The notes under the pieces are model-generated. The model ran no database searches and was not told where the DNA came from. It was given only the letters and a program-made list of their open reading frames with translations. Below are positions 5,035-43,320 of a stretch of 44,146 bases of DNA, piece after piece (position 1 is the stretch's first letter; each line of letters begins with the position of its first letter). The stretch lies in the IMG/VR virus record IMGVR_UViG_2698536573_000002; one strand, written 5' to 3'. The translations under genes were made by a program, and so were the position numbers. Source of the DNA: a virus. Taxonomy: Duplodnaviria > Heunggongvirae > Uroviricota > Caudoviricetes.

Positions 5035-7819
5035 AACTTAATCTCCGTTGTTGGAACATATGAGCACTCAATTTCTTCTCAAAATCAGAATATCCCGCAT
5101 CTAATGCTCTTTTAGCTGCCGCCTCAGTTTCCTTTGGTGAACCAGCCGGAAGATTGATTACAGGTGAATAGGTTATTCCACCAGTCACAGCGTTAACGTT
5201 CTGGCGAGGTCCAGAAGTCCCGGCGGCAGATATCCCGTGAGGTGATAAATTTGATTGCCCGAACTTGGTTGCTATTGCATTCTGTAAGCTGTTATTCCTG
5301 CTAACACCTGATGCCAGAGTAGTCATTATTGCACCACCTGACTTTGTTAGCTGTGAGAATGGACCTTTTTTCGCGTCAGAGAACGGTAAATACTCACGTA
5401 CAGAAGAAAAAACGCCTTTCACTTCATTAATTAAAGCATTTGCTTTTGATTTTATCCCAGTGATTAACGTCTCAATTATTTTTGCACCTGACTCACTCCA
5501 GTTTATTCCAGATAAATAAGCCGTTACAGATTGGAATGCTCTTATAAAGAGTCCAACTGGTGAAAAACGCATAAAAACAGATACCAGTGTATCTATGATT
5601 TTCTTTCCTGTTTCGCTCCAGTTAACACCAGAAAGATAATTTTTTACATATTTAAACGCTTTAATTAATAACGGAAGCGGAGACATCCATTTAAAAGCAC
5701 TAATTAATGTACTGTAAATCTTTACTCCTGCCGAACTCCAGTTTATATTGGAAAGATAATCCCATGCTTTACCAAACATGGATATAATCCATCCATTGAG
5801 ATCAAAGTTTAAGATAAAGTTTTTTATAGTCTCAAAAGACTTAACAGTGTAATCCTTAATAGCAGGCCAAACTTTTGATGCACATTCTTTTATTTTATCC
5901 CAATTCTGATACAACAATATACCTAACGCCACAATGGCTGATATGGCCATCTGAATCCACCCGAAAGGGGTTAGCTTTGTCGCTACAGATAAAGCCAGCA
6001 TAGCTACCCTACACGCTATAACCACACTTTTCATGGTTAGAAACGCACCTGCCGCCATCACAATCTGAGAAACAAAATTGGGGTTGTTAGCTACAAATTC
6101 ACTGATTTTTGTAATCAGCGGAACCAAAACACTAAGCGCGGCATTTAAAGCAGGTTGCAAGGCCTGACCAAAACTTAATGATGCATTGCTAGCCTGAATA
6201 CGTAATTGTTTCAATCGCTCCGCATTATCTTTCGTTATGTTGGCAAAATCGCGGTCAATAACAGCACTTCCAGCTCCAAGAGATGTTGCTTTGATTCTCT
6301 GGTATTCCTTCCAGTTTTGAATCATCGGACGAACAAAGTTCTGAACCTGCATATCGCCAAATAGCTCACCAAGTAACTTCTGATCTCCGTTCTTAGTCAT
6401 TTTCATGACAGAATGCATTGCAGCTTCGAATGGATTCTTCCCTTTTTTCTGCGCTGTTGTGACAATTTTATATAAATCTACACCGAAATTTTTCTTTGCT
6501 TTTTTTAGTGTTTCAGGGGAAAGTATTTTCGCCAAAAAGTTGTTCATATTATTAGCAGCCTCATCCGAAGTTGCAGCACCTTTGCGAGCTATCTGCAAAG
6601 CTGCCCCCATCGTCGCGGCGGCTTCTTTACCTCCCATTTTTAATGCCTGGAACTGAGCACCAAGCACAGGAAGATTTTTGGCCATATCTTTAAATTCAAA
6701 GTTTCCCTCTTTCCCTGCCTGAACCAGAATCCCCATTGCAGACTTCATTTGAGATGGATCAATCTTCAATGAGTCACTTAATGTAAATGATGCTTTCGAG
6801 ACATCGAGGATATCAGAGCCAGTAGCTGTAGCTGTTCGCCCAATAGTTAGTAGATTCGCCTGAGCCTCTTTATAATCCTGCCCAGCAGCGACAAGAAAAC
6901 CCTGAGCGGCCTGAATATCAGATGCAAACTGGTTGGTGGCCGTTCCGGTAACAAGCATCGCCTGCCCCATCGCCTGAACTTCTTCCGGCTTCATATCTGC
7001 CGTAAGACCAATCATTTTGTTTTCACGATTGAAATTTGCTGCATTGTTAGCAGCAGCAAATGCACCAGCCGCTACAGCACCAGTTTGTAATCCTGACCTT
7101 ACAAGTTGACTCTTTGCCTCACCAAGATGCTCTCGCTTCAATTCACGCTGCCTTTCCAACGCGCGGTTTAACTCCTCCTGAGCACGTTTTACTGCAAGAA
7201 CATTTTTCCGTGCTTCAGCCAACGCATTTTTATAGCTGTTAATTTTATCAATACGTTGTTTTTCTAATGCCCGGTTAAGTTCCTCCTGCTGTTTTTTCAC
7301 TTGCTGAACATTTGCTCTGGCTAAAGCCAAAGCCGTTCTGTAGCGGTTAACCTGCTCAACGCTACGGGCCTGAGCCTCACGATTACGATCAATGCTGGCT
7401 TTAAGCTCTTTCTCTCTTGAGGCCAAAGCTCTGGCAGATGTATCAGCTCCCTGATAGGCAGACTTTAAAGCGGCCAGTTCTTCACGCTGAGAACGTAGTG
7501 ATGCTCGTAAATTCGATGAATGTGTTTTTGCCTTCTCAAAGTCACGAAGCATCGCTCTGGTTGGATTGGCCGTGTTTTTTATTTGCTTCTGTAACTCTTC
7601 AACGCGAGCGGCAGCTTTATGATATTCGAGGGCAGTCTGTCCAACCTTTACTTTTACAGATTGTAGCTTTTGAATTTCCCCATGTTCTTTCGTTAATCCA
7701 GCAAGCTCGGCATTTAATTTAGCAACAGCCTGATTAGCTGTAGTAAAACTTTTGGGGAGAGAGGCGGCAACTTTGCCGCCAATTTCAAAAGCCAGCTTAA
7801 AGTTCTTATTGCTGGCCAT
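5027..7819 (-). CDS. tail tape measure protein
   Basis: 930 aa; long coiled-coil N-terminal half with KAQ/ELNRALE repeats, hydrophobic central segment, located after tail chaperone. Confidence 0.85.
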   Translation of the reverse strand: MASNKNFKLAFEIGGKVAASLPKSFTTANQAVAKLNAELAGLTKEHGEIQKLQSVKVKVGQTALEYHKAAARVEELQKQIKNTANPTRAMLRDFEKAKTHSSNLRASLRSQREELAALKSAYQGADTSARALASREKELKASIDRNREAQARSVEQVNRYRTALALARANVQQVKKQQEELNRALEKQRIDKINSYKNALAEARKNVLAVKRAQEELNRALERQRELKREHLGEAKSQLVRSGLQTGAVAAGAFAAANNAANFNRENKMIGLTADMKPEEVQAMGQAMLVTGTATNQFASDIQAAQGFLVAAGQDYKEAQANLLTIGRTATATGSDILDVSKASFTLSDSLKIDPSQMKSAMGILVQAGKEGNFEFKDMAKNLPVLGAQFQALKMGGKEAAATMGAALQIARKGAATSDEAANNMNNFLAKILSPETLKKAKKNFGVDLYKIVTTAQKKGKNPFEAAMHSVMKMTKNGDQKLLGELFGDMQVQNFVRPMIQNWKEYQRIKATSLGAGSAVIDRDFANITKDNAERLKQLRIQASNASLSFGQALQPALNAALSVLVPLITKISEFVANNPNFVSQIVMAAGAFLTMKSVVIACRVAMLALSVATKLTPFGWIQMAISAIVALGILLYQNWDKIKECASKVWPAIKDYTVKSFETIKNFILNFDLNGWIISMFGKAWDYLSNINWSSAGVKIYSTLISAFKWMSPLPLLIKAFKYVKNYLSGVNWSETGKKIIDTLVSVFMRFSPVGLFIRAFQSVTAYLSGINWSESGAKIIETLITGIKSKANALINEVKGVFSSVREYLPFSDAKKGPFSQLTKSGGAIMTTLASGVSRNNSLQNAIATKFGQSNLSPHGISAAGTSGPRQNVNAVTGGITYSPVINLPAGSPKETEAAAKRALDAGYSDFEKKLSAHMFQQRRLSFG

Positions 7820-19672: not shown

Positions 19673-20392
19673 TTAACGAGAGAACGTCTTAGAAAGAATG
19701 TCATCAATAGCCTTTGTGACTTCATCAGCAAACGCATTCTCACCAGCACGCAGCGCCACGCCATGCCAATCAAGACGCTGCGAATAGTTAGGTTGCTGGA
19801 TAAACGTAAGGATCAACGTAGGACGCCGCCCAACGCGCTGCCAGACGCCTGGTTGAAGCGGGTTACTTGTACCAGGTCGAACAACAAAAAACTCCGTAGG
19901 CTTGCCCTGACGGCGATTTTGATGCGCATCTCGCTGAACTCTTAGGCCAGATAAGACCTGCTGTAATTGCCCCCGCGAAATATTCCCGTATTTGTCCAGC
20001 TTTGCGCCGGGACCAGGAGCAAGCTGCCAGCCGTTAGGCAAATATCCACCAGCCCTTAGCGCCCCTTCTGAGCGTTTGTACTGTCGTTGGCCACCTTCGA
20101 TTTGCGGAGTCAACGTTACAGGGGCTGGCGTTCCTCCCCATTCACGAGCATACACAATGGCTGTAGGATCACTCTTCTTTGCGGCCAAAACGTAAGTAGA
20201 GTTCTGAATCCACGGCGTGGGCCTGTCAAATACCCGATTAATTTCATTCTTAATCGCAGCCTGAGAAGCCTTTGCCGTTCTGGTTGCCGCAAGCGCCATT
20301 GCGAACGGCAATTCGCGTTCTTCAAGGCGCTGGAGTTGTCGTTGAATATCCTGAGAAGAAAAATCCATCTTTATCTCAATTCTGTCAGCCAC
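19673..20392 (-). CDS. hypothetical protein
   Basis: 239 aa ORF, Gly/Pro/Gln-rich; no family recognised. Confidence 0.3.
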   Translation of the reverse strand: MADRIEIKMDFSSQDIQRQLQRLEERELPFAMALAATRTAKASQAAIKNEINRVFDRPTPWIQNSTYVLAAKKSDPTAIVYAREWGGTPAPVTLTPQIEGGQRQYKRSEGALRAGGYLPNGWQLAPGPGAKLDKYGNISRGQLQQVLSGLRVQRDAHQNRRQGKPTEFFVVRPGTSNPLQPGVWQRVGRRPTLILTFIQQPNYSQRLDWHGVALRAGENAFADEVTKAIDDILSKTFSR

Positions 20393-22875: not shown

Positions 22876-23175
22876 TCACTCGGCATAAGCACGATCATCT
22901 TCCGCTGCTGATTTACACGCCGCAGTTACTGATATATTGATAACCGGTGCGCTAATCGTGATGGACGACTCTGTCGGTTGACGCGATATAACTGAACGAT
23001 GGTTATCAATGAAGTCCACAATCTCATTCAGGCATTCTTTAGCTGCCTCATCGTGACTTTTTCCGTATGCTTCACGGAGGACTTTCATCCTCATCATTGC
23101 TCCGTCACATATAGTCGAAAGCGCGTAAAGCACATCACTAACCGCCATTTCTTTTTTGGTGCTTGTCGAAGGCAT
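22876..23175 (-). CDS. hypothetical protein
   Basis: 99 aa ORF in operon downstream of repeat copy 1. Confidence 0.3.
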   Translation of the reverse strand: MPSTSTKKEMAVSDVLYALSTICDGAMMRMKVLREAYGKSHDEAAKECLNEIVDFIDNHRSVISRQPTESSITISAPVINISVTAACKSAAEDDRAYAE

Positions 23176-23249
23176 CCCATGTTCTCCTTTGTCTGGATGT
23201 AAAAAAGCCCCGGCAATTGCCGAGGCTCGTTGTTCGTTATCGTTACGGT

Positions 23250-23450: not shown

Positions 23451-23716
23451 TCATCATCTCCTGCCGCACATACAACCTCACAAAAAAAATCAGCAGAATG
23501 TTTCTCCTTGAACGAATGACGCTCAAAACCGCACTCAATATCAGGCGCAAAAACATCCACCACATACGGTCTTTCAGAATGTTTGTTTTCCCAACGATAA
23601 ACCGTAGTGACGTTGAAATGTTTTAACGCTTCACGGAACTCAACGCTGCCCGTCAGGTTTTTTGAGGTCAGGTATTGCAGGAGGTTTTTTACTACTTCAC
23701 GGTCTTGTACTTTCAT
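23447..23716 (-). CDS. hypothetical protein, first gene after repeat copy 1
   Basis: 89 aa; ATG at 23716 is the last triplet of the conserved repeat, RBS GGAGA inside repeat. Confidence 0.4.
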   Translation of the reverse strand: MKVQDREVVKNLLQYLTSKNLTGSVEFREALKHFNVTTVYRWENKHSERPYVVDVFAPDIECGFERHSFKEKHSADFFCEVVCAAGDDE

Positions 23717-23825
23717 CAGATTTCTCCGGTTTAACCAGGGCGGGTATCGCTCGGTTTCGGGTATAACCTTAGGAAATTTTTTCCCACCTGTAAAGCACTT
23801 TTTATATAAATCTATAATTATATAA
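23717..23825 (-). repeat. ~109-bp promoter-bearing repeat, copy 1
   Basis: Near-identical to 29974-30082 and 40078-40187; contains TTTACA-17bp-TAAGGT, 5' leader and RBS. Confidence 0.85.
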
Positions 23826-24723: not shown

Positions 24724-24799
24724 TGGTGGCCCCTACCGGATTTGAACCGATGACCGTGCGATTATGAGTCGCCTGCTCTAACCACTAAGCTAAGGGGCC
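24724..24799 (-). tRNA. tRNA with anticodon CAT, ileX/ileY-like (tRNA-Ile2 type; Met not excluded)
   Basis: 76-nt cloverleaf: acceptor GGCCCCT/AGGGGCC, D-arm GCTTAGTGGTTAGAGC, anticodon loop CTCATAA, T-arm GGTTCAAATCC, encoded CCA. Confidence 0.8.
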
Positions 24800-24968
24800 A
24801 TATTTGATTTGTTTGTCTGGTGTGGCGCCGCGCACGAAAATCCCAGCCAATAAATTCAGGATTTTTGGGCGCGGCGGCATATCAGACAAACATGGTTGAT
24901 GCGTGCGCCCATGAGAAAAGCGCATAGAATGTTGTAACTATATATTTATATAATTATAGAAATATATA

Positions 24969-25178
24969 TTACTTTCGGCAGTTGATTTCCCATGCCCTGT
25001 TATGAGCCAGAATATCTTTCTTTGTCTGGCGGTCCATAACATCGATGTCGTGATCAGTCAGGTAGATGGGCTTTACCCAATCACAGGCGGTATCAACCAC
25101 CACCGGGACGCTTCCACGACTCCCGCAGCTCGCGATCAACATCGTCATCAGCCATATGGTTAACACTCTGCTGTACAT
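24969..25178 (-). CDS. o-spanin (Rz1-like lipoprotein)
   Basis: 69 aa with lipobox-like LIASC after hydrophobic N-terminus; overlaps 3' end of i-spanin gene in another frame. Confidence 0.5.
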   Translation of the reverse strand: MYSRVLTIWLMTMLIASCGSRGSVPVVVDTACDWVKPIYLTDHDIDVMDRQTKKDILAHNRAWEINCRK

Positions 25179-25371
25179 TCCCCACCTCTTTTGTCACTTC
25201 TATACGCCGCTCCGCAGTGGCTTTTACGGCGGCTGCATTCTCATTAATGCGCTGCTTTTCAGCTTCATCTTCGGCCTTTTCTCGCCCCTTCATACGACCA
25301 AAACCAAACGCACCGAATGCAACCAATATAACGGTGCCGATAAATGACAAAACGGCTTTCAAACCAGTCAT
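25093..25371 (-). CDS. i-spanin (Rz-like)
   Basis: 92 aa, N-terminal TM helix then charged coiled region; directly after endolysin. Confidence 0.5.
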   Translation of the reverse strand: MTGLKAVLSFIGTVILVAFGAFGFGRMKGREKAEDEAEKQRINENAAAVKATAERRIEVTKEVGNVQQSVNHMADDDVDRELRESWKRPGGG

Positions 25372-25910
25372 ACCACCACTCGCTCTTTCATCCAGCCGTA
25401 GACAAACGACTCATTAGCCTCGCGCTTCTCCGCCAGCTCCAGATAGCGTTCGCCCTGCGTACAGTTCAGCGACGTCAGCATCACCCGTTCGCCGTCTTTT
25501 CCCCGATTCCCAAGATAAGCACGTAGCGCATTAATGGTACGTGGACCGATTCGTCCGTCTGCATCCAAATCGGGATACAGCTTCCCGCGCAGGTTGAACA
25601 CATTCAGCCAGCGTTGAAGCATTTTTGACGCCACTGTTGGCCCCATGTTCACCCCCGTGTCACACAGCTCTGCGGCAATATCAGAGGATAATGCGGCCAC
25701 CTGATCAAAGCGTGGTCCGTACCAGTAATCAGCCTCAAGGATTTCCAGTGCCTGTTCGCGGGTTAAATCGCGCATATCGCCACGGTATCCATGAGCACGG
25801 GCAGTGTTCTGAGTAATGCCCCACTTTGTTGGGCCTCCCTTGTCGTCAGGGTGATCCACATAGCCGCCCTCTTTTCCAAGAACGCTGTTAAAAATCTCAT
25901 CTTTGGTCAT
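25368..25910 (-). CDS. endolysin, GH108-type lysozyme with C-terminal peptidoglycan-binding domain
   Basis: 180 aa; N-terminal LGKEGGYVDHPDDKGGPTKWGIT motif. Confidence 0.75.
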   Translation of the reverse strand: MTKDEIFNSVLGKEGGYVDHPDDKGGPTKWGITQNTARAHGYRGDMRDLTREQALEILEADYWYGPRFDQVAALSSDIAAELCDTGVNMGPTVASKMLQRWLNVFNLRGKLYPDLDADGRIGPRTINALRAYLGNRGKDGERVMLTSLNCTQGERYLELAEKREANESFVYGWMKERVVV

Positions 25911-26229
25911 GATTAAACCCTAATGCGTCAACTATCCGCGCCAGATTGCCCCTGAAATACAGAACAACGATGCAGATAATCAGATTTCCAATAACCACCA
26001 GCCAGTGGGATTCTTGATAAAGACCGAACACATAACGGAAGGGAACATTGGCGTATACAATGACGTAGATATAAGCCAGAAAGGAAACAAATGGACGATG
26101 CCTGGAGTCTTTCCGTCGATAAAGCATCAGCGCCATTACTATTACTGTGCAAAGCACCGCATTAATCAGTGCTGACGGGTCACTGCTTACCATTTGAACC
26201 CCCTCCACGTAAGCGGGAAAGCATTCCAA
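25897..26229 (-). CDS. putative holin/antiholin-like membrane protein
   Basis: 110 aa with multiple hydrophobic helices between holin and endolysin. Confidence 0.45.
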   Translation of the reverse strand: MECFPAYVEGVQMVSSDPSALINAVLCTVIVMALMLYRRKDSRHRPFVSFLAYIYVIVYANVPFRYVFGLYQESHWLVVIGNLIICIVVLYFRGNLARIVDALGFNHDQR

Positions 26230-26575
26230 AGATGCTACCGAGATCCTGGCTGTTTACGAACGTGAGGATTTTAATTGTCAATGCAGCCACAATAACCGCA
26301 CCAAGCGCATCAAGAGGACGATCGTTGTAGCTGGTCCATTTGGCAAGAAATGAGCCAACTAACGGCGCTCCAATCACTCCAACAATGAACGATGTAAAGA
26401 AATAGCCAATCAGCTTGAGACGGCTAATATTCACCGCTGTAGCAACATAGAAAACAGCGCCAGCAAATGCCCCGAATACAACGCCGTAATCAATACCAGT
26501 TGCAATACCAAAAACGCTGGCACCCATCAGGCCACCAGCAGCAACGGCCGTACCGGAAATTGGTTCTGCTGACAT
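26180..26575 (-). CDS. putative holin
   Basis: 131 aa, highly hydrophobic, first gene of lysis cassette; RBS GAGGA 7 nt upstream. Confidence 0.5.
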   Translation of the reverse strand: MSAEPISGTAVAAGGLMGASVFGIATGIDYGVVFGAFAGAVFYVATAVNISRLKLIGYFFTSFIVGVIGAPLVGSFLAKWTSYNDRPLDALGAVIVAALTIKILTFVNSQDLGSIFGMLSRLRGGGSNGKQ

Positions 26576-26588
26576 TGAAATCCTCGTT

Positions 26589-26620
26589 AAAAAAAAAGCC
26601 CCGCCGAAAAAGGCAGGGCT
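26589..26620 (-). terminator. intrinsic terminator immediately upstream of holin
   Basis: Minus-strand hairpin (agccctgcc/ggcggggct) followed by 9 U; ends ~14 nt before holin start. Confidence 0.55.
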
Positions 26621-26905
26621 TCATAAAGCAACAAATTACGCGGTAATCGCTTAACGCAGTTTTACTACGTTAAATGAAACACTACACCCAGTTACCACCT
26701 AAAACAAGGTTTCCCCATAAAAAAACCTTCACAATGTGGTTAATCGATCGATAAAAAAACAATACTTAACTTTTGACCAACCGAACATCCCGACCAGGAC
26801 TTCCATAATATTCGCCGATATGCCACTGCTTAAGTTGAGTAATCTTCTCCAACTTAACTCCCATAGAGTCCAGTTTCTGCCATGTTTTCGGTTGTATGTG
26901 CTTCA

Positions 26906-27265
26906 TTACCCGCTCTGAATATCTGAATACTGCTCGTAAGCGCATGGATTCTCACTACAGCTTATCCAACCACCCGGAGTTACCGAAACTGGCGGCGCGG
27001 CATATAGCTTACGGGTCTGAACACCTGCCCCCTGACATTTCTCTTCCTCAACAAACCATTCGAAAGCACATTCCCCGCAATCTTCCCATTCTCCCCATTC
27101 ATCATATTCTGCATCCCACTGGCGATACTGATATGCCACCGGTTCTGCTTCCAGCAAGGCTAACGCTATTTCATAAGCCCGGCGCTCAATATTGTCTCGC
27201 ACATCCAAGCGGCCTATGCGCTCTTTGATTTCTTTAATCAGTTCTTTGTCGGTAAAAGTGGTCAT
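26906..27265 (-). CDS. hypothetical Cys-containing acidic protein
   Basis: 119 aa ORF; CGEC...C motif. Confidence 0.3.
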   Translation of the reverse strand: MTTFTDKELIKEIKERIGRLDVRDNIERRAYEIALALLEAEPVAYQYRQWDAEYDEWGEWEDCGECAFEWFVEEEKCQGAGVQTRKLYAAPPVSVTPGGWISCSENPCAYEQYSDIQSG

Positions 27266-28828: not shown

Positions 28829-28905
28829 TGTCGAGGCGTCCTTATACATTTATATAAATATATAATTCTATATACGGCGGGAGACATCCCGCCGTAGGCT
28901 TACTG

Positions 28906-29973
28906 TCAGGCTTTCAATAGCGATTCTTTCAGATATCGGGCATCAGCCAGGGCGTTTGGAGTAATCTTGCGAACCCATGCATTACGGGTTGGACTCCACT
29001 TAAAGGCGCGTGATTTAAGCAGCGAACGAATGTTTGCCTCTGGTTTGCCAGGGAAATAAAACAGGATGCGGTTATCCTCTGGATCTATCTCCATAGAAAA
29101 GCCGTCGTATTCTTCGCGCTGTGCTCCTGTTACAGACTTGACCGATTCAAGCTCCTTAATACGGCTCTGTAGTCGTTTGATTTCGGCATTATTGTTACTC
29201 AGTGAGTATGAAGGGAAGCCAATGTGCCCACAGAAATCTCCGGCGAGTAACCCTTTGGCTTCGCTTTCAGTAAACTCAAGGTCAATTAATGCGGAAAGCT
29301 GCTGTAATTGGTCTTTTTTGTATTTGCGAATAGCCTTATTTGCGGCCTTCATTTTGATGTGTGACTTCATGCAGCCTTGCAGCTTACGAAGCAACTTAAA
29401 TAGCGCATCAGGATCATCAGACGAAACTCCATTACGGCCGACACCTGCGGCTTTGCTTTCGTAGTACGATGCTCTGCTTTCACACTCAACAAACGATTTT
29501 CTGAATAACGCATCAGCTTTAGACAAACGGCGGCGATGGCCTTTCGCGCTATAATGGTCAACTAAAATCGGCTGGCCTAACGGGATCACATCCAACAGTT
29601 CATGCGCTCGCTTATGCGCCACCGCACCTTCTTTTCTGGCTTTTTCTGCACGAGCAATATATCGGGCAAGACGCGCGTTCTGGCGTTCCTGATAGGTATT
29701 TACGTAATCATCTCCGCGCTGCTGCTGTTCAAGCCATGCTTTGCGCAGCTTTTCTGTTACGTCTACCAACTCTGCAGGGATACAACCTGTTTGGGATTCA
29801 TAAGAGTGACCATCCTCATAAAGACGTCCATCGTCTTCAACAACGAAAAAGGTTTCGTGCTCATCGCTTTTGACCATACGGCCATTAACATGACGTAATC
29901 TATAGCCAGTATCAGTGCTCAACAGGCTGTTAGGGTTGTTGATCCAGTCAGAAATAATTACTTGTTTATTCAT
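28906..29973 (-). CDS. hypothetical protein (355 aa), first gene after repeat copy 2
   Basis: ORF 28906-30123; start at 29973 (MNKQV) preferred because it is the ATG closing the conserved repeat. Confidence 0.45.
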   Translation of the reverse strand: MNKQVIISDWINNPNSLLSTDTGYRLRHVNGRMVKSDEHETFFVVEDDGRLYEDGHSYESQTGCIPAELVDVTEKLRKAWLEQQQRGDDYVNTYQERQNARLARYIARAEKARKEGAVAHKRAHELLDVIPLGQPILVDHYSAKGHRRRLSKADALFRKSFVECESRASYYESKAAGVGRNGVSSDDPDALFKLLRKLQGCMKSHIKMKAANKAIRKYKKDQLQQLSALIDLEFTESEAKGLLAGDFCGHIGFPSYSLSNNNAEIKRLQSRIKELESVKSVTGAQREEYDGFSMEIDPEDNRILFYFPGKPEANIRSLLKSRAFKWSPTRNAWVRKITPNALADARYLKESLLKA

Positions 29974-30082
29974 CAGATTTCTCCGGTTTAACCAGGGCGG
30001 GTATCGCTCGGTTTTGGGTATAACCTTAGGAAATTTTTTCCCACCTGTAAAGCACTTTTTATATAAATCTATAATTATATAT
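29974..30082 (-). repeat. ~109-bp promoter-bearing repeat, copy 2
   Basis: One mismatch vs copy 1 over ~105 bp; -35 tgtaaa at 30046-30051, -10 acctta at 30023-30028 (plus-strand coordinates). Confidence 0.85.
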
Positions 30083-30143
30083 TTATAGATTTTCCGATAT
30101 TCCCGGTGCCTACAAATCACCAAAACAGCTCAAAATGACACTT

Positions 30144-30521
30144 TCATTCTCTTCTCTTTTTCAAGTAGTCGACAACATACGCCCTGGCTTTTGCCAGCTT
30201 CCGGCGATACTGTCTGAGACTAAGAGAAAGGGCGTGGGCTTTATCAATATGCGGTGCATTTATGTCGAGGCCCCGAATCTCCCACGCCCCGTATTCAATT
30301 CGGACAACCAGCGCCGCAGTCTCATCAACTACCGTGAGGGCCGTCACCGCTCCCTCGATACTGGTTTCCAGTGAGTCATTTGGTGCGCCGCCCCCTCCGG
30401 TAAACTGGCAACGCGTAACCATCATCATTTCTAACATCGACGCGAAACCGCTACGGGCGTTGCAGCCATTGCGCACCCACAGCGCCCATAGCTCAAACAA
30501 GCTATCCAGATCGCGTCTCAC
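30144..30521 (-). CDS. putative Q-like antitermination protein
   Basis: 125 aa, GTG start overlapping upstream stop (GTGA); N-terminal LFELWALWVRNG resembles Q of 82/21 type as I recall it; last gene of early operon, followed by a promoter repeat. Confidence 0.4.
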   Translation of the reverse strand: MRRDLDSLFELWALWVRNGCNARSGFASMLEMMMVTRCQFTGGGGAPNDSLETSIEGAVTALTVVDETAALVVRIEYGAWEIRGLDINAPHIDKAHALSLSLRQYRRKLAKARAYVVDYLKKRRE

Positions 30522-33820: not shown

Positions 33821-33930
33821 ATATGATTATAGATTTATATAATTATATAAAACACTTTTCATCCGCCAAAAAGTTGGTTATGCTTACCTCATTCTATAAA
33901 TATAGATTTATAGAATTATATAATCAAACA
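33821..33930. repeat. clustered AT-rich palindromic motifs upstream of parA (candidate centromere/operator)
   Basis: tatgattatagatttatataattatataa and tataaatatagatttatagaattatataa; same core as in the three promoter repeats. Confidence 0.5.
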
Positions 33931-34600: not shown

Positions 34601-34643
34601 TATATAATTATAGTTTTATAGATTTATATAAGAGAGGATACAC

Positions 34644-35112: not shown

Positions 35113-35136
35113 ATAAAAAAGGCCCCCGAAGGGGCC
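35113..35136 (-). terminator. intrinsic terminator (minus-strand orientation)
   Basis: ggcccc-cgaa-ggggcc hairpin followed by U6 on minus strand, directly after small ORF 35143-35265. Confidence 0.5.
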
Positions 35137-35142
35137 TAATCG

Positions 35143-35265
35143 CTACTTGCTGCTAATGTTTATCGTCACATTCAGAGCGTTATCAGTAATCTTCCAACCC
35201 TCTCCATGTGGCGTAAACAAAGCCCCAGTAACAACGATAAAAATACACATGTAGTATTTTTTCAT
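35143..35265 (-). CDS. small hydrophobic peptide (40 aa)
   Basis: MKKYYMCIFIVVTGALFTPHGEGWKITDNALNVTINISSK; RBS AAGGG; own terminator. Confidence 0.35.
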   Translation of the reverse strand: MKKYYMCIFIVVTGALFTPHGEGWKITDNALNVTINISSK

Positions 35266-35655
35266 TGTGTGGCCCTTACAGGCCGTTTCACGGCATCCCC
35301 ACCGACGAAAATGACGCGAGAGCAAGCACGCTGTTTGTGCCTGCGTGGTACGGCAAGTGGATAATCCTTTCCTGAAAGTCAGTGCCCGGGTGCGAATCGG
35401 CGGAAAGGCCCCAAGCCATATTACACGTCATACCCTTCATAATGAAGGAATAAAAAACGCTTTTATTACATGAGATTACACGTAAATAAGTTAAAAACCT
35501 TCATTTTGCATGAGCTAATGAGCTAAATTTTTTTATATGAATAGTGGACTATTCACCTCAGTTAGGTAAGAATGTAGTTGCTGTTTGTGCTTGCGTGGTT
35601 GTATTAGTACAACGACGTTATGCTGAAAGGACCGCGAATCCGATCAGCACGAAAG

Positions 35656-36419: not shown

Positions 36420-36521
36420 AATGCGCCATTGGTGGACACTTTCCGAGCCGTAGCAAAATCTACGGTCGGGATTGGAACCCCGATAATCATCATGGCGCAT
36501 ACCGCGTTAGCGGTTTTTTTA
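36420..36521 (+). ncRNA. candidate small regulatory RNA (c4-like) upstream of antirepressor operon
   Basis: TTGACA at 36412-36417; terminator accgc-gtta-gcggt + T7 at 36501-36520; short elements complementary to leader near 36603-36634. Confidence 0.3.
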
Positions 36522-36685
36522 TGCGTAAAGCACTGCTACACCCAAATTATGGTGGGGCGTGCGGGGGAGTCGTAAGACTCGCCGGATTCCATGGTGACCG
36601 GTAGTTCCAACCCTGTACGTCTCACCACCCAATGATTGGAACCAGACGGTGGTGAGTATCCTTAACCTTTAAGGGAACTATCACC

Positions 36686-36877
36686 ATGACAAACCTACCC
36701 CATGACTATTACGTCAACCTCGTAAAGATCCTTCTCAAGAAAGCCTCATACGCCGATAAATTCCGCCTGGCTGAAATCATCGAGCGCGAAGCTATGCGCA
36801 TCGCCAGCAACGATAACGCTGTTTCTGTCGCAAAAATCTCCCTCGTAACCAAAGTAGTTATGGGAGGTGCAAAATGA
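36686..36877 (+). CDS. small leader protein translationally coupled to antirepressor (icd-like position)
   Basis: 63 aa; stop TGA overlaps ant ATG (ATGA); RBS AAGGGA. Confidence 0.45.
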   Translation: MTNLPHDYYVNLVKILLKKASYADKFRLAEIIEREAMRIASNDNAVSVAKISLVTKVVMGGAK

Positions 36878-38055
36878 AAACGCTTCCGACCGTTAACACC
36901 CTACAGCCTATCCTGCATAACCAGCTCCCCGTTATCACTACTGAACTACTGGCGCAATTGTATGGAACCGAGCGCCAACGTCTGACAAACAATTTCAATA
37001 GAAACAAGGAACGTTTTATAGAAGGTAAACACTTTTTTAGGATAGAAGGTAAAGAGTTACGAGAGTTGAAGAACAAAAACTCTTTAAGAGTTCCTGTGAG
37101 AGTAGTTAACGAACCATCTTTAAGAGGGTTACAAATTCCCCCGAAAGTTCGCTCCCTCATCCTCTGGACAGAACGCGGGGCTGCACGTCACGCCAAAATG
37201 CTTGAAACTAACCAAGCGTGGGATGTGTTCGAACGGCTGGAAGACAGCTACTTCAACCAGAACGCACAAACGGCCGCGACCGTAACCGTCTCACCAAACA
37301 ATGCTCGTGAGGTTGTCGATACGCTCAACGCCAAACCAATGTATTACGTTAAGGTGTGCAACAACGAGCCACTCACAACCTCAGCCGATGTAGCCCAGGC
37401 ATTCAGCACCACAAACAATTCCATCGTTATGGCCATCGATGCATTACGCATTCCTCGCACAGCTGCGGCACGTCATTTCTTTAAAGAGCAACGACCGCTG
37501 GAAGGAAGCGACCGCGAAATAACAATCTATCGCATGACAAAAGACGGATTTACCTTGCTCATGGAAAGTATCGACGGTCCAGGCGTGAAGGATATCAAGC
37601 TGGCCTACATTGAAGCCTTTAACGCTATCAGCAGCGTGTTAAAGGCAGAATACGAGCGAATGCTATACAACCGACTGTATCAGGAAACAAAGATTATCCG
37701 AACGGCAACAGAACATCATCGGCTATTAACGGAACCAAACTACCGCAAGACACTAATCAAAGAGTTTGACAAGGCGACGGAGAAAACTAAAGCGGCACTA
37801 AATCTACCAACAATGACTAAAGATGATGTGATATCAGCCTTACTTCTTGATCTGCTCAGAAACGTCAGAGCACTTATCAGTTTTGACGAAAACCTGAATC
37901 CTCAGCTCAAGCTACTACCACCGACAGGCAAAGTAGTCGACCAAGCAGATCACAACAGCATACTCAGCGTACTGGATGCAAACCTGCCAGCCAGGACACT
38001 ACAGGAGCTGATAAAAATATCTGCGGATAAACTGGCCGCAGGTGCAAAACCATAA
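36874..38055 (+). CDS. antirepressor (ORF6N/KilA-N-like N-terminal domain plus Rha-like domain)
   Basis: 393 aa; N-terminal LPVITTELLAQLYGTERQRLTNNFNRNKERF and central MYYVKV...TIYRMTKDGFTLLM blocks. Confidence 0.6.
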   Translation: MKTLPTVNTLQPILHNQLPVITTELLAQLYGTERQRLTNNFNRNKERFIEGKHFFRIEGKELRELKNKNSLRVPVRVVNEPSLRGLQIPPKVRSLILWTERGAARHAKMLETNQAWDVFERLEDSYFNQNAQTAATVTVSPNNAREVVDTLNAKPMYYVKVCNNEPLTTSADVAQAFSTTNNSIVMAIDALRIPRTAAARHFFKEQRPLEGSDREITIYRMTKDGFTLLMESIDGPGVKDIKLAYIEAFNAISSVLKAEYERMLYNRLYQETKIIRTATEHHRLLTEPNYRKTLIKEFDKATEKTKAALNLPTMTKDDVISALLLDLLRNVRALISFDENLNPQLKLLPPTGKVVDQADHNSILSVLDANLPARTLQELIKISADKLAAGAKP

Positions 38056-40077: not shown

Positions 40078-40187
40078 CGGGTTATCTCCGGTTTAACCAG
40101 GGCGGGTATCGCTCGGTTTCGGGTATAACACTAGGAAATATTTTCCCACCTGTAAAGCACTTTTTATATAAATCTATAATTATATAA
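40078..40187 (-). repeat. ~109-bp promoter-bearing repeat, copy 3
   Basis: About 95 percent identical to copies 1 and 2; same -35/-10 spacing. Confidence 0.85.
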
Positions 40188-40240
40188 TTCCATGAGCACA
40201 AAAAAGCCCCTTTGCAACAGGGGCTTATCATTCGTTCTGA

Positions 40241-43242: not shown

Positions 43243-43320
43243 TGTCGAGGCGCCCATGGTTAGTTGTTGGTTTTCCGTGGATGTCGCAAGAAGCCCGCAG
43301 ATTTATCTGCGGGCTTTTTG
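43243..43320 (+). ncRNA. antisense RNA to repA leader (CopA/RNAI-like)
   Basis: Plus-strand promoter TTGCGT-16bp-TATAAT (43209-43236); terminator gcccgcag-atttat-ctgcgggc + T-run at 43293-43323; fully within repA leader. Confidence 0.55.

Follow-up and report, generated by a model that had tools for sequence, protein, structure and literature searches.

How are phage lysis genes transcribed when a strong transcription terminator stands directly before the first of them? The holin gene in the window studied here, by which we mean the whole stretch of 44,146 nt taken from a Caudoviricetes virus (IMG/VR record IMGVR_UViG_2698536573_000002), raises this question. A sequence-only reading of this DNA had pointed to a strong minus-strand hairpin followed by U9 between the upstream genes and the lysis cassette, and had proposed that lysis gene expression requires read-through of this signal, consistent with a Q-like gene at 30144-30521. 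We confirmed the hairpin, and its placement at 26576-26625 was accurate. The best reading of the locus, which we consider probable from the sequence comparisons described here, is a gate of the tR' type that would be opened by an antiterminator of the Q21 family.

The element carrying this site is a plasmid-prophage (phage-plasmid). The window region was 100% identical to the 51-kb circular E. coli plasmid pE300082_50, and its relatives at 95-99% identity comprised numerous 47-57-kb plasmids of E. coli, among them one from strain ATCC 25922, as well as the Yersinia phages vB_YpM_39, 41, and 44. The plasmid-prophage encodes RepA, ParA, and a CI-like repressor, carries an immI-like region with isrK, C4 RNA, and an ORF6N/Rha antirepressor, and has one long minus-strand gene array in which the early genes are followed by the lysis genes and then by those for packaging, head, and tail. 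Membership of the pSLy3 group was considered and rejected for this element, that group being SSU5-like. Among the Rfam matches in the window were ryfA, isrK, and C4 antisense RNA, at 35115-35413 (minus strand), 36447-36520 (plus strand), and 36545-36632 (plus strand). The isrK and C4 RNA matches lie directly upstream of the gene of the ORF6N/Rha antirepressor type (36874-38055, plus strand), and the set resembles the immI antirepressor control module of P1/P7 (with an isrK like that of Gifsy-1), here on a 50-kb phage-plasmid.

Read on the minus strand, the stem-loop (26595..26622) consists of the 5' arm GAAGCCCTGCC (26622-26612), the loop TTTTTC (26611-26606), and the 3' arm GGCGGGGCTTT (26605-26595). 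Its 11 base pairs (7 G-C, 2 A-U, and 2 G-U) enclose a 6-nt loop, and the hairpin alone has a predicted folding energy of -20.0 kcal/mol. A U9 tract (26589..26597, minus strand), three U of which lie inside the stem, follows directly, and the corresponding tract in relatives is T7-T9. These values agree with those of intrinsic (Rho-independent) terminators, in which a GC-rich stem of roughly 5-14 bp encloses 3-8 loop nucleotides and leads straight into a U-tract of at least 6-8. In its 71-nt context the structure reached -24.7 kcal/mol (z = -4.2), and none of 200 shuffled sequences was equally stable. A consensus scan of 22-32 kb ranked the holin-proximal terminator first of 18 terminator-like sites. 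A strict scan was limited to stems of 9 bp or longer that contain 6 or more G-C pairs and lead into a T-rich tail, defined as either 7 or more T among the 9 nt that follow the stem or 9 or more T within a 12-nt window whose start lies inside the stem end. It returned two sites in the 44-kb window, this one and another at 43292-43315 on the plus strand, and none in 30 first-order Markov random sequences. Given that no T-run follows the hairpin when it is read on the plus strand, it is a one-way, minus-strand signal. We infer from these features that the hairpin and U9 together act as a working intrinsic terminator.

Only 13 nt, AACGAGGATTTCA, separate the U-tract from the holin ATG at 26575-26573 (spacer and start codon together 26573..26588, minus strand), and they hold the Shine-Dalgarno sequence GAGGA (26585-26581), 5 nt ahead of the start codon, in agreement with the earlier remark that the holin ribosome-binding site comes right after the U-tract. 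The start codon is credible because the Pfam Phage_holin_8 match (E 1.7e-37) of the 131-aa product begins at residue 3; the gene (26180..26575, minus strand) is annotated as "phage holin" in the identical E. coli plasmid. Given that no promoter fits between the U-tract and this ATG, holin mRNA must cross the hairpin, and the geometry of the locus thus supports the proposal that lysis expression needs read-through. The genes that follow on the minus strand encode a second holin or antiholin with a Phage_holin_3_7 match (25897..26229, the real start probably lying near 26193), an endolysin with Glyco_hydro_108 and PG_binding_3 domains (25368..25910), and a pair of Rz-like and Rz1-like spanins (24969..25371, with the two genes at 25093-25371 and 24969-25178; phrog_1026 and phrog_1275).

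The same architecture recurs further along the late gene array. A second strong terminator, composed of GAGCCTCGGC, the loop AATT, and GCCGGGGCTT followed by T6 (23205..23228, minus strand), stands before the next late gene and ends about 10 nt before its Shine-Dalgarno sequence and about 23 nt before its ATG at 23175. Upstream of it are two small ORFs and the second of three copies of a repeated promoter block, hereafter P_rep. This position, before the next late block and downstream of a P_rep copy, fits processive antitermination, and the location of essential late genes behind at least two strong co-directional terminators is a signature of such a regime.

The sequence-only reading had also placed the terminator about 14 nt before the holin start. 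This holds for the window, with its 13 nt, and not as a conserved trait, the distance being about 55 nt in Salmonella and about 48 nt in lineage L036. Because it varies in this way across three lineages, the closeness of the terminator to the holin ATG appears incidental, and the conserved feature would be a terminator that ends a cassette ahead of lysis genes. This cassette is a non-coding stretch of 176 nt (26589..26764, minus strand) that is both conserved and portable. Among close relatives, upstream genes vary and similarity resumes about 360 nt before the holin gene. Two Salmonella plasmids retained a 290-nt stretch of the region at 71% identity next to different holin and endolysin genes, and in lineage L011 the cassette follows a different upstream gene. 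We also found it in the IMG/VR lineage L009/L025, in the remote L033/L036 lineage, whose Q-like protein is 50% identical, and in 61 PLSDB plasmids, while an nhmmer search of the cassette against distant Q-like loci found L033 only. Since the same cassette occurs between different upstream genes and different lysis cassettes, the terminator appears to belong to this portable unit and not to the holin gene.

Conservation within the cassette was uneven. A core of 46 nt, GTGGTAACTGnGTGTAGTGTTTCATTTAACGTAGTAAAACTGCGTT (26653..26698, minus strand), was invariant in three lineages except for one G/A position (written n), and its flanks were about 70% identical in the same lineages. Partly within this core lies a hairpin, SL2, formed by TTAACGTAG, the loop TAAAA, and CTGCGTTAA (26651..26673, minus strand), with 96% of cells paired; L036 kept its stem and had the loop changed from TAAAA to TTTTT. 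A variable linker connects SL2 to the terminator. Searches of genome contigs with a degenerate SL2 pattern gave 103 matches in unrelated bacteria, all of which proved to be chance matches by nhmmer. An alternative pairing of UUUGUUG with UAACGAG, which would sequester the Shine-Dalgarno sequence, was rejected, since relatives have a different downstream sequence and the pairing is therefore not conserved.

Just upstream of the cassette is a small ORF of 59 aa (26766..26945, minus strand; phrog_9594), which is conserved as a protein in three lineages (FRYSERVMK...QLKQWHxGxYYG) and absent in some relatives such as L011. It evolves as coding sequence, with 25 changes at third codon positions against 9-12 at the other positions. 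This ORF and the end of the upstream gene share 40 nt, and the ORF carries no PGAP annotation in the identical plasmid.

The terminator stem was paired in 100% of cells across nine sequences from four lineages, a small sampled diversity. Two pairs had changed on both sides (C-G to U-A in three sequences and C-G to G-C in one), as is typical of a selected hairpin, and two others had changed on one side only in a wobble-compatible manner, while loops varied freely and differed in every lineage. A search of viral and metagenome contigs with the specific pattern of SL2 plus terminator returned only the four known lineages, so the covariation statistics stay thin. Conservation of the arrangement reached beyond the cassette itself: seven of the eight related lineages examined had a terminator before the lysis cassette, and the distant relatives L027, L028, L029, and L031, which do not have the cassette, carried a different terminator directly before the holin Shine-Dalgarno sequence. 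The sole lineage with no terminator before its holin was L030, which does have the Q-like gene.

The presumed gate-opening factor is a protein of 125 aa (30144..30521, minus strand), whose Q-like nature had been a guess from the sequence and is now backed by profile and fold comparisons. The protein itself had no Pfam match at E 0.01 and no named PHROG match, and it falls below the curated PF06530 threshold. Its close family showed only traces of Sigma70_r4 and PF06530, with one of 24 relatives matching PF06530 at E 0.074. An exhaustive profile search recovered about 130 clusters of relatives at 50% identity. When a profile of 113 family representatives was compared with the PDB, only the phage 21 Q protein was matched (6jnx/6p18, E 3.7e-5), with query positions 4-89 aligned to positions 11-93 of Q21 and a common LELWxxW motif. 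PF06530 was matched by 10 of these 113 distant relatives at E 0.01 or better (best 1e-4), and Sigma70_ECF by 6 of the 113. With hhalign, the 113-member profile matched K-12 QuuD, a bona fide PF06530 protein, at E 5e-4 over 110 columns; an hhalign comparison of the close-family profile with QuuD as a single sequence had not been significant, and the wider family profile was needed. The best Foldseek matches of an AlphaFold model were likewise Q21, at marginal E-values of 0.3 to 0.9. Homology to Q21 was thus detected both by profile and by fold, and the helix-turn-helix of the protein is well conserved across all these lineages. The gene order of Ref nuclease, DUF1064, and Q-like gene places the last of these at the end of the early operon, where Q is usually encoded. 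We conclude from these profile and model comparisons that the 125-aa protein is probably a divergent member of the Q21 lineage, with predicted antitermination activity. About 8 ORFs, spanning 3.5 kb, lie between its gene and the terminator.

Two sites are candidates for where such a protein could load onto RNA polymerase. The cassette contains a weak candidate sigma-70 promoter, TTGTTT and TAGTGT with a 17-nt spacer (26679..26707, minus strand), which ranked 545th of 44114 minus-strand positions with a position weight matrix (PWM) and whose hexamers were invariant in three lineages. Its predicted start near 26671 would yield an RNA of about 80 nt extending from SL2 to the terminator. Lambdoid Q cassettes have a Q-binding element between -35 and -10 and a -10-like pause element in the initially transcribed region. 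The spacer of the weak cassette promoter includes a direct repeat, GTGGTA/GTGTAG, and TAACGT / TAGTAA lie after this promoter, but neither feature is compelling or conserved in L036. A consensus promoter scan (at least 9 of 12 matches) of the minus strand between 22 and 32 kb gave no candidates, we detected neither a convincing -10-like pause element nor a Q-binding element of the TGAGCA type, and we could identify no DNA motif common to the lineages that might serve to bind Q.

P_rep offers another possible loading site. This block of about 115 nt is present in three near-identical copies that head three different operons, all on the minus strand: copy 1 (29972..30090) directly after the Q-like gene, in the position of PR', copy 2 (23715..23825) between the MT-A70 gene and the morphogenesis genes, and copy 3 at 40078-40190. 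In copy 1, the palindrome TCTATAA-N8-TTATAGA is followed by the promoter TTTACA-17-TAAGGT, for which the PWM gave a rank of about 51 among the 44114 minus-strand positions, and next come a leader, a Shine-Dalgarno sequence, and an ATG; the -10 variants of P_rep are TAAGGT, TATGGT, and TAGTGT. The Salmonella lineage L024 has P_rep at the same three positions, and the fetched stretch of L025 has two copies. The first strong terminator after copy 1 is the holin-proximal hairpin, 3.4 kb downstream. Copies of P_rep were far more alike within a genome than between genomes, a pattern of concerted evolution.

The AT-rich palindrome TCTATAA-N8-TTATAGA was found at no fewer than eight intergenic sites (11 matches where 0 were expected), at operon starts and flanking parA: 23803-23824, 24939-24960, 28851-28872, 30060-30089, 33829-33848, 33893-33914, 34601-34628, and 40165-40186. 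By analogy to the C1 operators of P1, these sites may be dispersed operators at which a global repressor or a ParB-like protein acts. Related phages carried either this motif itself or a lineage-specific equivalent. In L027, L028, and L031, the AT-rich motif that follows the Q-like gene recurs right before the holin terminator. L036 has two copies of a palindrome of its own right upstream of the cassette, and this palindrome is also present in the presumed control region of that phage. That L027, L028, L029, L031, and L036 each have an operator-like motif of their own just before the terminator or cassette argues for a local promoter. In L033, the most distant relative that carries the cassette, the 12-bp palindrome GTGACGCGTCAC is found two times immediately upstream of the holin cassette (20181-20215). 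A further copy, accompanied by a degenerate one, lies at 5485-5520, about 4.5 kb upstream of the Q-like gene, and the palindrome probably serves as an operator connecting the late cassette with the phage repressor. A GC-rich hairpin without a U-tract, ACGGCGGGATGTCTCCCGCCGT (28878-28900, minus strand), was observed right after the DUF3560 gene and is immediately followed by the AT-rich motif and then by the next gene.

In the mechanism that we propose, the terminator would close the 176-nt regulatory cassette and shield the lysis operon (two holins, endolysin, and spanins) from all upstream transcription, as a functional equivalent of lambda tR'. Holin mRNA would then come only from polymerases reading through the terminator, and the factor permitting this would most likely be the 125-aa protein of the Q21 family encoded at 30144-30521. 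Like Q21, it would load on sigma-70 RNA polymerase at a promoter-proximal site and render it resistant to terminator hairpins. As the loading site, we tentatively favor the weak cassette promoter TTGTTT-17-TAGTGT, from which, when Q is absent, a terminated RNA of about 80 nt would arise, similar to lambda 6S RNA. Loading at P_rep copy 1, directly behind the Q-like gene, from where the modified polymerase would have to cover 3.4 kb to reach the gate, seems unlikely. We also regard as improbable a broader version of this model, in which the portable late-gate module is additionally the source of a short regulatory RNA whose GU-rich seed lies between two hairpins, and the Q21-like protein runs a distributed regulon. 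That regulon would include the three P_rep copies as identical promoters, together with two or more distant terminators, each standing just ahead of a block of late genes, and Q would act kilobases from its own gene and not on an adjacent PR'-tR'.

The hairpin could instead be a plain operon-end or insulating terminator that closes an early or accessory operon and has no dedicated antiterminator. A fixed leak fraction would then provide a low and delayed dose of holin, and the 125-aa protein would be a DNA-binding regulator resembling sigma region 4. The placement of essential genes for lysis and morphogenesis after two such signals, one of them a strong stem of 11 bp and -20 kcal/mol with U9, speaks against this explanation, even though L030 copes without a terminator; it also leaves the invariant 46-nt core upstream unexplained. 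While the Sigma70_ECF matches among the Q-like relatives would suit such a regulator, the only significant PDB sequence match is to Q21 and covers the N-terminal part (residues 4-89), outside the helix-turn-helix. The distance of 3.5 kb between the Q-like gene and the terminator, and the fact that no qut-like site was identified, are easier to understand under a plain terminator, to which on balance we give little credence. We give similarly little to the view that the cassette is mainly an sRNA gene or the source of a 3'-UTR-derived sRNA of about 80-160 nt, in which the hairpin serves as a Rho-independent terminator of the Hfq type, the GU-rich region between the hairpins is single-stranded, and the position before the holin is secondary. 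The pattern of conservation is typical of an sRNA, with an invariant unpaired stretch, kept stems with variable loops, and a terminator with a long U-tract. The Rfam family GcvB (RF00022) matched the whole cassette (26590-26749), aligning to the hairpin, the GU-rich linker, the second hairpin, and the terminator. However, this match, at 31.8 bits (E 2e-5 for the region), was below the gathering score of 42, dropped to 21.7 bits in the Salmonella copy, and was absent in L036; at gathering thresholds, Rfam gave nothing at the terminator site. The many other sRNA and leader matches at permissive thresholds were driven by the terminator and were set aside, GcvB, the sole notable one, failing in relatives. 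A TATATT -10-like element is present in L036 just downstream of the operator palindromes and upstream of the first hairpin, but the window lineage has no convincing promoter upstream of 26750, and a conserved -35 element would not fit within the cassette, whose 5' boundary is at 26764. An sRNA function would also be compatible with the gate, in that short PR'-tR' transcripts can act as sRNAs. The 6S RNA of lambda and the PR'-tR' transcript of Stx phages (the StxS sRNA) are both short RNAs that end at the terminator just upstream of the late genes, and a short PR'-tR' transcript may have a function of its own.

Antitermination could also be directed by an RNA element in the nascent transcript, with SL2 and a boxA-like UUGCU(N)UUU acting with or without an N-like protein. 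Models for this are the lambda N/nut system, with boxA and boxB, and HK022 put. The SL2 stem was kept in L036 with a changed loop and a wobble-compatible change, but neither loop sequence (UAAAA or UUUUU) resembles boxB; similarly, three lineages have a UGCU(N)UUU motif ahead of the terminator, but the boxA match covers only 6-7 of 9 positions and is absent in L036. A put element is made up of two adjacent stem-loops, and the cassette hairpins are not adjacent. Given moreover that no N-like protein was identified, that Rfam detected no known cis-antitermination element, and that a credible Q21-like protein antiterminator is present, an RNA element of this type is the explanation that we find hardest to accept, with only a slim chance of being correct.

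A gate opened by a Q21-family protein looks like a variant of the textbook late-gene switch of the lambda type, not a system that is new in kind. The locus resembles the Q21/PR'21/tR'21 system of phage 21 in having an intrinsic terminator ahead of lysis and late genes (10.1101/651190, PMC6606751) and in having a small protein, homologous to Q21 by profile and fold, at the end of the early operon. The window protein differs from Q21 in size (125 aa against 162 aa) and in lying below PF06530 thresholds. With lambdoid Q cassettes, the locus shares a conserved non-coding module upstream of the terminator and further terminators inside the late gene array. In the canonical Q cassette, the Q gene is directly followed by PR', a pause element, and the terminator (10.1101/651190). 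Here, in contrast, a good promoter (P_rep) comes after the Q-like gene, which is separated from the terminator instead of adjoining it, the first strong one lying 3.4 kb downstream. Further differences from lambdoid Q cassettes are that neither a TGAGCA-type direct-repeat Q-binding element nor a clear -10-like pause element was found here, that the candidate local promoter is weak, and that the host element is a RepA/ParA plasmid-prophage and not an integrated phage. In Stx phages, accessory genes (stx) follow tR', whereas here they precede the terminator and the short transcript is predicted from sequence. Pseudomonas aeruginosa AlpA, encoded in a chromosomal programmed-lysis locus (PMC9371919), showed a weaker likeness to the window protein than Q21 did.

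These results provide a testable model for how lysis genes may be silenced and switched on in the 47-57-kb phage-plasmids of E. coli, Salmonella, and Yersinia, which are widespread and little studied. The Q21 antiterminator family would gain a divergent branch that is mostly invisible to Pfam. The locus also presents an arrangement in which accessory genes separate the Q gene from the terminator that it would gate. If confirmed, the cassette and the 125-aa protein would constitute a compact, orthogonal antitermination switch. Beyond the lysis cassette, a tRNA gene (24727-24799, minus strand) lies between it and the MT-A70 methyltransferase gene; the E. coli record labels it tRNA-Ile, the Yersinia phage annotation gives tRNA-Met, and a long hairpin follows the gene at 24516-24486.
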